Of a stretch of 26,142 nt of DNA, positions 6,025-6,096 are shown one piece after another. Position 1 is the stretch's first letter; the number at the start of each line of letters is the position of its first letter. The position numbers were made by a program, and so were the translations under genes. The notes beneath the pieces were generated by a model that had not been told where the DNA came from, did not search any database, and was given only the letters and a program-made list of their open reading frames with translations. The stretch is taken from the NCBI GenBank assembly GCA_014728035.1, contig WJMJ01000060.1, forward strand, positions 1 to 26,142. The letters are read 5' to 3'. The DNA comes from Promethearchaeota archaeon (GTDB lineage: Archaea > Asgardarchaeota > Thorarchaeia > Thorarchaeales > Thorarchaeaceae).

Positions 6025-6096
6025 TGGTGGGAGCATGGAGAATCGAACTCCACATGTTGGGGTTTAGAATCCCACAGCTCCGCCAAGAGTGCTCCC
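6025..6096 (-). tRNA. amber suppressor tRNA (anticodon CUA), tRNA-Pyl-like architecture
   Basis: GGGAGCA|CTCT TGGC GGAG|CT|GTGGGA TT-CTA-AA CCCCAAC|ATG|TGGAG TTCGATT CTCCA|TGCTCCC A CCA. Confidence 0.85.

Follow-up and report, generated by a model that had tools for sequence, protein, structure and literature searches.

The window analysed here is the entire 26-kb contig WJMJ01000060.1 (26,142 nucleotides) of a 4.3-Mb metagenome-assembled genome (MAG), which is 8.5% contaminated and was assigned to an Asgard archaeon of the phylum shared with Ca. Borrarchaeum; the MAG encodes EndA. On the minus strand of the contig, a short gene for a tRNA with a CUA anticodon lies between two tail-sheath reading frames and adjoins a GC-rich island, with two small frames carrying early in-frame UAGs downstream of it. 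The features of the locus, and the main tRNA array of the contig, are as follows.

5047 to 5112, minus strand: short leader, ATG ACT TAG and then the RGPP peptide, with the UAG at 5106–5104; the second Met-X-UAG frame.
5115 to 5369, minus strand: small PTH2-like gene with a GAGGAGG Shine-Dalgarno sequence and the start ATG ATG TCG TAG, the TAG at 5360–5358.
5397 to 6005, minus strand: ORF for a tail-sheath C-terminal domain (Pfam Phage_sheath_1C, residues 3–99; PHROG tail sheath).
6025 to 6096, minus strand (read from 6096 to 6025): compact 72-nt tRNA with CUA anticodon, A73 and encoded CCA, recognized from sequence, fold, ARAGORN and covariance models.
6097 to 7175, no strand: foreign island of ∼1.1 kb, 58–71% GC, directly upstream of the tRNA, recognized by composition.
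6254 to 6123, minus strand: island ORF of 43 aa with an AGGAG Shine-Dalgarno sequence.
Near 6300 to 6352: GC hairpin and then a T-run, within the island.
6710 to 6522, minus strand: island ORF of 62 aa with a weak Zn-ribbon match.
7072 to 6698, minus strand: island ORF of 124 aa, its one homologue lying on an ENA contig of 532 bp.
7153 to 7476, minus strand: small ORF with the tail-sheath N-arm motif NPGVYVKEID, its last codons running into the island.
11286 to 25121, minus strand: tRNA array: 19 canonical phage genes, each encoding its CCA (ARAGORN and Rfam).

Several lines of evidence show that the contig is bacteriophage DNA. The tRNA-Tyr gene (23278–23362) is of the bacterial type, with G1:C72 and a 13-nt variable arm, and the contig genes carry strong Shine-Dalgarno sequences. 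The glycosyltransferase (872–1993) has homologues of 55–65% identity in Planctomycetota chromosomes (Pirellulales, Roseimaritima, Rhodopirellula), and the PTH2-like family is also found in jumbo phages of bacteria. The contig is therefore a fragment of a large, AT-rich, tRNA-rich bacteriophage that was mis-binned in an Asgard MAG, and the MAG record is to be corrected, since WJMJ01000060.1 is not Asgard DNA. Planctomycetota is the likely phylum of the phage's host. No CRISPR spacer linking the MAG to the contig was found.

We compared the locus with that of a relative, an 8.5-kb Logan contig of 35% GC (L078), which matches the window in gene order, has a glycosyltransferase of 79% identity to the window's, and is collinear with it from window position 5360 downwards. 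In L078, the sheath N-arm is a separate 104-aa ORF (312–626), to which the window's N-arm ORF is 62% identical over the first 47 aa. A single nucleotide separates the end of this ORF from a canonical tRNA(CUA) of 75 nt at 628–702, and the sheath C-terminal ORF comes next; in the window, the corresponding ORF starts 19 nt past the CCA of the compact tRNA and is 27% identical to its L078 counterpart. With a tRNA(CUA) at the same locus in both, an amber suppressor at this place is characteristic of the lineage. In the window, island sequence has taken the place of the final codons of the N-arm ORF, which suggests that a GC-rich cassette replaced the old segment, possibly along with the old tRNA; two genomes give no direction of change. 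A more distant relative, the 129-kb IMGVR_UViG_3300037264_002389 (glycosyltransferase 61% identical), also has a canonical tRNA(CUA), at 19009–19082 in a nonsyntenic position.

The island differs sharply in composition from the rest of the contig, which has 35–40% GC. Searches of Pfam, PHROGs and a protein atlas and by tblastn gave no family matches for its ORFs, save for the one homologue on the 532-bp contig. The island is absent from L078 and from 85 genomes of the MAG's family, and neither target-site duplications nor terminal inverted repeats were found at its flanks. A GC content of 58–60%, as in part of the island, is typical of some pyrrolysine (Pyl) users and of Planctomycetota. Contig C74 of the MAG has another sharp island of high GC content (56–65%) at 4823–7046, with an orphan HsdM-type N6 methylase between RNA ligase and RlaP genes; it also holds copies of a GC-rich 29-nt repeat, short arrays of which occur on contigs C70 and C131.

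Read on the minus strand, the tRNA is composed, in order, of GGGAGCA (acceptor stem), CUCU UGGC GGAG (D arm), C, UGUGGGA UUCUAAA CCCCAACA (anticodon arm), UG, UGGAG UUCGAUU CUCCA (T arm), UGCUCCC (acceptor stem), A and CCA. The predicted fold is a cloverleaf (minimum free energy of −26 kcal/mol, z = −2.1) with an acceptor stem of 7 bp or, in the minimum-energy fold, of 6 bp together with a 6-bp T stem. Nucleotides 8 and 9 are missing, so that 0 nt separate the acceptor and D stems; the D stem CUCU/GGAG has 4 bp, and the 4-nt D loop, UGGC, contains GG. The anticodon stem consists of four pairs, one of them A·C, a bulged A, and then two or three further pairs, and it ends in the loop UUCUAAA, which presents the CUA anticodon with U33 and A37. 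The T arm is standard, with the loop UUCGAUU and the G53–C61 pair present. In the register of the tRNA-Pyl covariance model R1 (described below), standard pairs make up 21 of the 22 modelled; the sole exception, A31·C39, lies next to the anticodon loop. Encoded CCA is shared with all 19 other tRNAs of the window. The initial annotation had placed a 72-nt CUA tRNA with A73 and CCA at 6025–6096 and described a long anticodon stem broken by a bulged A and an A–C pair, and our analysis agrees on strand, cloverleaf and each of these elements. Its 3-nt variable loop is one of two counts, the loop having 2 or 3 nt according to the treatment of the U21–A42 pair.

Standard gene finders treat this tRNA differently from its neighbors. 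At default settings ARAGORN, and at the gathering threshold Rfam, report the 19 other tRNAs of the window and not this one. ARAGORN scoring, which had been proposed as a check in the initial annotation, identified 6025–6096 as a 72-nt tRNA(cta) once the threshold was lowered, and the top Rfam match was tRNA-Sec (21.4 bits, E 0.064). Real pylT genes fold more stably (about −40 vs. −26 kcal/mol). No evident promoter was found for the gene; a hairpin and then a T-run sit ∼200 nt upstream. Direct homologues of the tRNA or of the island were absent from the phage collection, from IMG/VR pattern searches and from the 85 genomes of the MAG's family, and a pattern scan of JGI metagenomes gave only canonical CUA tRNAs that share the anticodon arm, none of them a direct homologue of the compact tRNA; there is, therefore, no covariation within its own lineage. 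Judged by its sequence and fold, 6025–6096 is a real, well-formed gene for a predicted compact amber-suppressor tRNA of a bacteriophage.

The two frames downstream of the tRNA share an unusual start. In the PTH2-like gene, 80 codons follow the TAG and have no start codon of their own; the L078 gene starts ATG CAT TAG and continues into the same conserved body, also without a start codon of its own. The start ATG ACT TAG and the RGPP peptide of the next frame are common to the window and L078, within DNA that is 77% identical, and ATGACTTAG with RGPP is kept in L078, where no internal ATG comes after the TAG. The PTH2-like family consists of ∼100-aa proteins, with 219 database matches, and its closest full-length homologue, P0130, starts MHQDPKYFF, with Gln where L078 has TAG. 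The window copy has lost 22 codons in frame (window 5261–5300 vs. L078 1630–1700), and with them the Q..HA..E motif that every examined homologue shares; the target, or the module, may thus be decaying in the window phage. Met-X-TAG starts are no more frequent than the Met-X-TAA or Met-X-TGA controls; the case for gating rests on conservation and not on frequency.

That conservation extends to cultured phages. The PTH2-like family is present in 101 cultured phage records; we examined the gene start in four jumbo phages, and an early in-frame UAG was found in all four.

XacN1: M-K-TAG.
RsoM2USA: M-L-TAG.
Serratia phage BF: M-T-H-TAG.
Acinetobacter phage ME3: M-T-TAG, with an annotated anticodon-CTA tRNA ∼430 nt upstream.

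In the XacN1 record (AP018399.1, near 243730–243760), the annotated ORF364 begins at an internal ATG, and a Shine-Dalgarno sequence and ATG AAG TAG lie in frame upstream of it.

XacN1 and ME3 (whose tRNA is annotated as "tRNA-OTHER anticodon CTA") resemble the window phage in being tRNA-rich, in carrying CUA tRNAs while TAG still serves as a stop, and in having the early-UAG PTH2-like gene. The CUA tRNAs of such standard-code jumbo phages have been called orphans, and the XacN1 paper found no target for the two that XacN1 encodes (PMC5852040); the early-UAG PTH2-like gene of XacN1 looks like such a target. What sets the window tRNA apart is its structure and its surroundings. The ME3 and L078 tRNAs are canonical 74–75-nt cloverleaves that score 16 and 24 bits on the tRNA-Pyl model R2 (below), whereas the window tRNA has 72 nt, a compact Pyl-type core and a score of 42 bits, and it adjoins a foreign GC-rich cassette.

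The likely job of the tRNA had been overlooked in the initial annotation; it is suggested by the same-locus tRNA(CUA) of L078 together with the conserved Met-X-UAG starts just downstream. The window phage has a tRNA(CUA) although TAG is otherwise its stop codon, and a nearby early-UAG gene is conserved in its relatives. Position is conserved as well, with the L078 tRNA(CUA) between the same two ORFs and the CTA tRNA of ME3 ∼430 nt from its PTH2-like gene. With the cloverleaf, the synteny and the conserved UAGs as its support, we favor with moderate confidence the reading that the compact tRNA is a dedicated amber suppressor for the conserved Met-X-UAG gates downstream, most likely not for pyrrolysine insertion. 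The tRNA would be expressed by transcription with its minus-strand neighbors and would mature by the same processing as the other 19 phage tRNAs with encoded CCA. Once charged, it would decode two UAGs: that at codon 3–4 of the PTH2-like gene, which lies ∼650 nt downstream, and that at codon 3 of the RGPP leader in the next frame. The PTH2-like and RGPP products would then be made by read-through, and only in the presence of the phage's own tRNA in its charged form, which would amount to a one-codon translational gate. The inserted residue may be Gln, the sole hint being the one homologue with Gln at the position of L078's UAG. The compact Pyl-like body would be a structural variant of the suppressor that came with, or simply adjoins, the foreign GC-rich cassette. 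More broadly, a CUA tRNA beside genes that keep a start-region UAG across very different phages points to a testable one-codon translational switch.

To place the compact body among known amber tRNAs, we assembled a reference set of 38 pylS loci, drawn from species genomes of Borrarchaeum, Bathyarchaeia, Dehalococcoidales, Bacillota, and many Methanomassiliicoccales. At 34 of the 38 loci ARAGORN calls a CUA tRNA upstream of pylS, usually within about 500 nt, and only such pylS-linked pylT genes were used to build two covariance models, R1 from six Methanomassiliicoccales pylT and R2 from 18 pylT of all lineages. The window tRNA scores 44.7 bits on R1 and 42.1 bits on R2. On R1, genuine pylT genes from other lineages score 26–53 bits, a span that includes the window tRNA, and the best canonical tRNA of the window reaches 28.1 bits; across the whole 4.3-Mb assembly, it is the sole match to the tRNA-Pyl models below E 0.01. 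Canonical GC-rich tRNA-Gly genes of other genomes score 32–36 bits on these models, with the D arm unaligned, a control that makes common descent with pylT less certain. The window tRNA aligns to pylT over its full length with one 1-nt insertion and with the bulged A kept. Nearly every stem position differs from reference pylT with pairing still maintained, and identity to any pylT is 40–57%. With one Methanomassiliicoccaceae pylT (L023) the window tRNA shares the exact sequences of both the D loop, UGGC, and the T loop, UUCGAUU.

The closest structural parallel is the compact tRNA-Pyl of Methanomassiliicoccales, the partner of PylRS enzymes without an N-terminal domain, as in 'Ca. M. alvus' (PMC3941956). 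A tRNA of this type reads, in order, GGAGGGC, GGUC CGGC GACC, A, GCGGGU CUCUAAA ACCU-A-GC, CAG, CGGGG AUCGACA CCCCG, GCCUUUC, G and CCA. The window tRNA has in common with it the missing linker, the 4-nt NGGC D loop, the encoded CCA and the bulged A after four anticodon-stem pairs. It differs in having A73 in place of G73, one more outer anticodon-stem pair, a variable loop of 2 nt and not 3 nt, and a closing pair that is A·C and not U–A; identity is only 52–57%, and the gene lies in a bacteriophage with no adjacent pylS. The hallmarks of tRNA-Pyl that we find in it are the CUA anticodon with U33 and A37, the compact D arm without a linker, and an anticodon stem of at least six pairs that is broken by a bulge and joined to a short variable loop. 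The tRNA-Pyl-like architecture noted in the initial annotation is, then, matched point by point, and the covariance-model scoring that it had also proposed puts the tRNA within the pylT range, though canonical tRNA-Gly genes (32–36 bits) and a compact phage tRNA(CCA) described below (32.7 bits) also score well on such models. Its further premise that PylRS uses G73 does not hold universally, since tRNA-Pyl with A73 (HMET1 pylTA, MSBL1) and with U73 has been published (PMC9630628, PMC9071458). The expected G73 is A73 in the window tRNA, and A73 alone does not exclude membership in the tRNA-Pyl family; on a tRNA-Pyl it is already known and not new. The HMET1 and MSBL1 isoacceptors carry A73 on a Pyl-type amber tRNA, as the window tRNA does, a combination that proved orthogonal to G73-specific PylRS, and are accompanied by a dedicated PylRS2 (PMC9071458, PMC9630628); neither the window nor the MAG contains such an enzyme.

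A similar shape exists in a phage tRNA that does not read amber. Serratia phage BF encodes a Pyl-shaped 69-nt tRNA (KY630187.1, 273740–273808) that, like the window tRNA, lacks the 8/9 linker, combines a 4-bp D stem with a D loop of 4 nt and has an extended anticodon stem; its score on the tRNA-Pyl model is 32.7 bits. Its anticodon is CCA and not CUA and it lies ∼12 kb from the PTH2-like gene; the likeness to the window tRNA is one of architecture. Since this shape occurs in phage tRNAs unrelated to amber or Pyl, it does not by itself show Pyl ancestry. The compact body with A73 is, therefore, best described as a notable variant whose ancestry is either pylT-derived or that of a convergent compact phage tRNA.

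We searched for the enzymes that a Pyl-type tRNA would need. TIGR02367 and TIGR03911 had no matches in the MAG, and PF01409 matched only PheS and HisS; no pylS, pylB, pylC or pylD was found beside the tRNA, in the window or in the bin. The absence of visible pyl genes from the window, as first reported, thus extends by profile search to the whole MAG. A divergent, possibly phage-encoded synthetase had been suggested as the charging enzyme; no synthetase that would serve the compact tRNA, phage-encoded or other, was found in the window or the MAG. The tRNA is a plausible candidate for unusual charging. Because the contig is a bacteriophage mis-binned in an archaeal MAG, the lack of pyl genes in that MAG is uninformative about the real host, which lies outside this comparison, and we dropped the argument that the host lacks pyl genes. 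ARAGORN also called a 98-nt "tRNA-Pyl(cta)" on contig C51 (15308–15405), downstream of genes for EndA and a secretion-type ATPase; we rejected this candidate, which has a poor 3-bp anticodon stem and is probably a miscalled archaeal tRNA, perhaps intron-bearing.

Among the alternatives to a gate-dedicated suppressor, the one that survives best is that the gene is a genuine pylT homologue, captured with the GC-rich cassette from a Pyl-decoding organism, and that an A73-accepting PylRS of the host inserts pyrrolysine or another PylRS substrate at the UAGs. Scores of 44.7 and 42.1 bits on models made only of pylS-linked pylT, the full-length alignment with its bulged A, the D and T loops shared with L023, the published A73 tRNA-Pyl with its PylRS2, and an island GC content that fits some Pyl users (and Planctomycetota as well) are all consistent with it. 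We nonetheless consider it unlikely: identity to any pylT does not exceed 57%, canonical tRNA-Gly genes come to 32–36 bits on the same models, the Serratia phage BF tRNA(CCA) shows the shape arising in phages without Pyl, the syntenic L078 tRNA is canonical, and there is no pylS, pylB, pylC or pylD nearby, in the window or in the bin. It is a little more doubtful still that the tRNA is a true tRNA-Pyl descendant that arrived with a GC-rich, host-like cassette in place of an ordinary suppressor and is charged either by an A73-accepting host PylRS or by an unrelated enzyme. Such a descendant would be the first pylT carried by a virus, as well as an A73 Pyl-type tRNA with natural orthogonality in a bacterial cell, and derivation from pylT would imply viral traffic of the pyrrolysine decoding machinery. 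If charged in bacteria, a compact A73 Pyl-type tRNA would also be a natural scaffold of interest for genetic-code expansion.

We also find it rather improbable that the tRNA is a non-functional passenger of the foreign cassette or a relic of a decaying suppressor module. All four stems are intact despite the many differences from known relatives, the elbow nucleotides, U33, A37 and CCA are all present, the deletion in the PTH2-like gene is in frame, and both Met-X-UAG starts have kept their Shine-Dalgarno sequences. Decay would, however, account for the loss of a conserved motif inside the PTH2-like target and for an N-arm ORF cut short by the island, and it would fit a tRNA with an A·C mismatch, a modest folding z-score, no direct relatives and rejection by standard tRNA finders.

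An assembly artefact, in which ∼1.1 kb of GC-rich DNA from another organism, possibly including the tRNA, was misjoined into the phage contig, is very improbable. The jump from 35–40% to 58–71% GC is sharp, the island's flanks carry neither target-site duplication nor terminal repeats, and the MAG is contaminated and has other GC islands. However, an artefact would require two misjoins that restore collinear phage DNA, with the N-arm and sheath C-terminal ORFs ordered as in L078, and L078 leads one to expect a tRNA(CUA) at exactly this place; moreover, the GC island of C74 takes the neat form of an orphan methylase gene flanked by AT-rich ones.

Suppression in a phage recoded genome-wide to read TAG as sense ("code 15") is the remaining alternative. 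Borges et al. reportedly found in 2022 that recoded phages bear suppressor tRNAs in regions that look normal when read with the standard code, and a view of 26 kb could miss recoded late genes outside the contig. In the window, TAG terminates 9 of the 50 long minus-strand ORFs; there are no multiple in-frame TAGs whose reading as sense restores coding density, and nothing is gained from TAG as sense except at the two early UAGs. The crAss-like and Lak phages with code 15 resemble the window phage in overriding UAG with a phage-borne tRNA(CUA), but they have many in-frame TAGs in late genes, whereas here TAG is an ordinary stop and only the two early UAGs look programmed. Recoding is hardly credible given that TAG as sense brings no specific gain of coding coverage to any contig of the bin or any related locus and that the standard code is used by the cultured phages that share the gated gene; the XacN1 authors saw no sequence similarity past any of its 18 amber stops (PMC5852040).

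Outside the suppressor locus, 16677–16739 gives a partial Rfam tRNA match (model positions 5–66, 39 bits) that ARAGORN does not call and that may be a remnant within the tRNA array. At the end of the contig (25847–26140) lies a long trinucleotide repeat, reading as poly-Ser on the minus strand, which may explain why the assembly stopped there.
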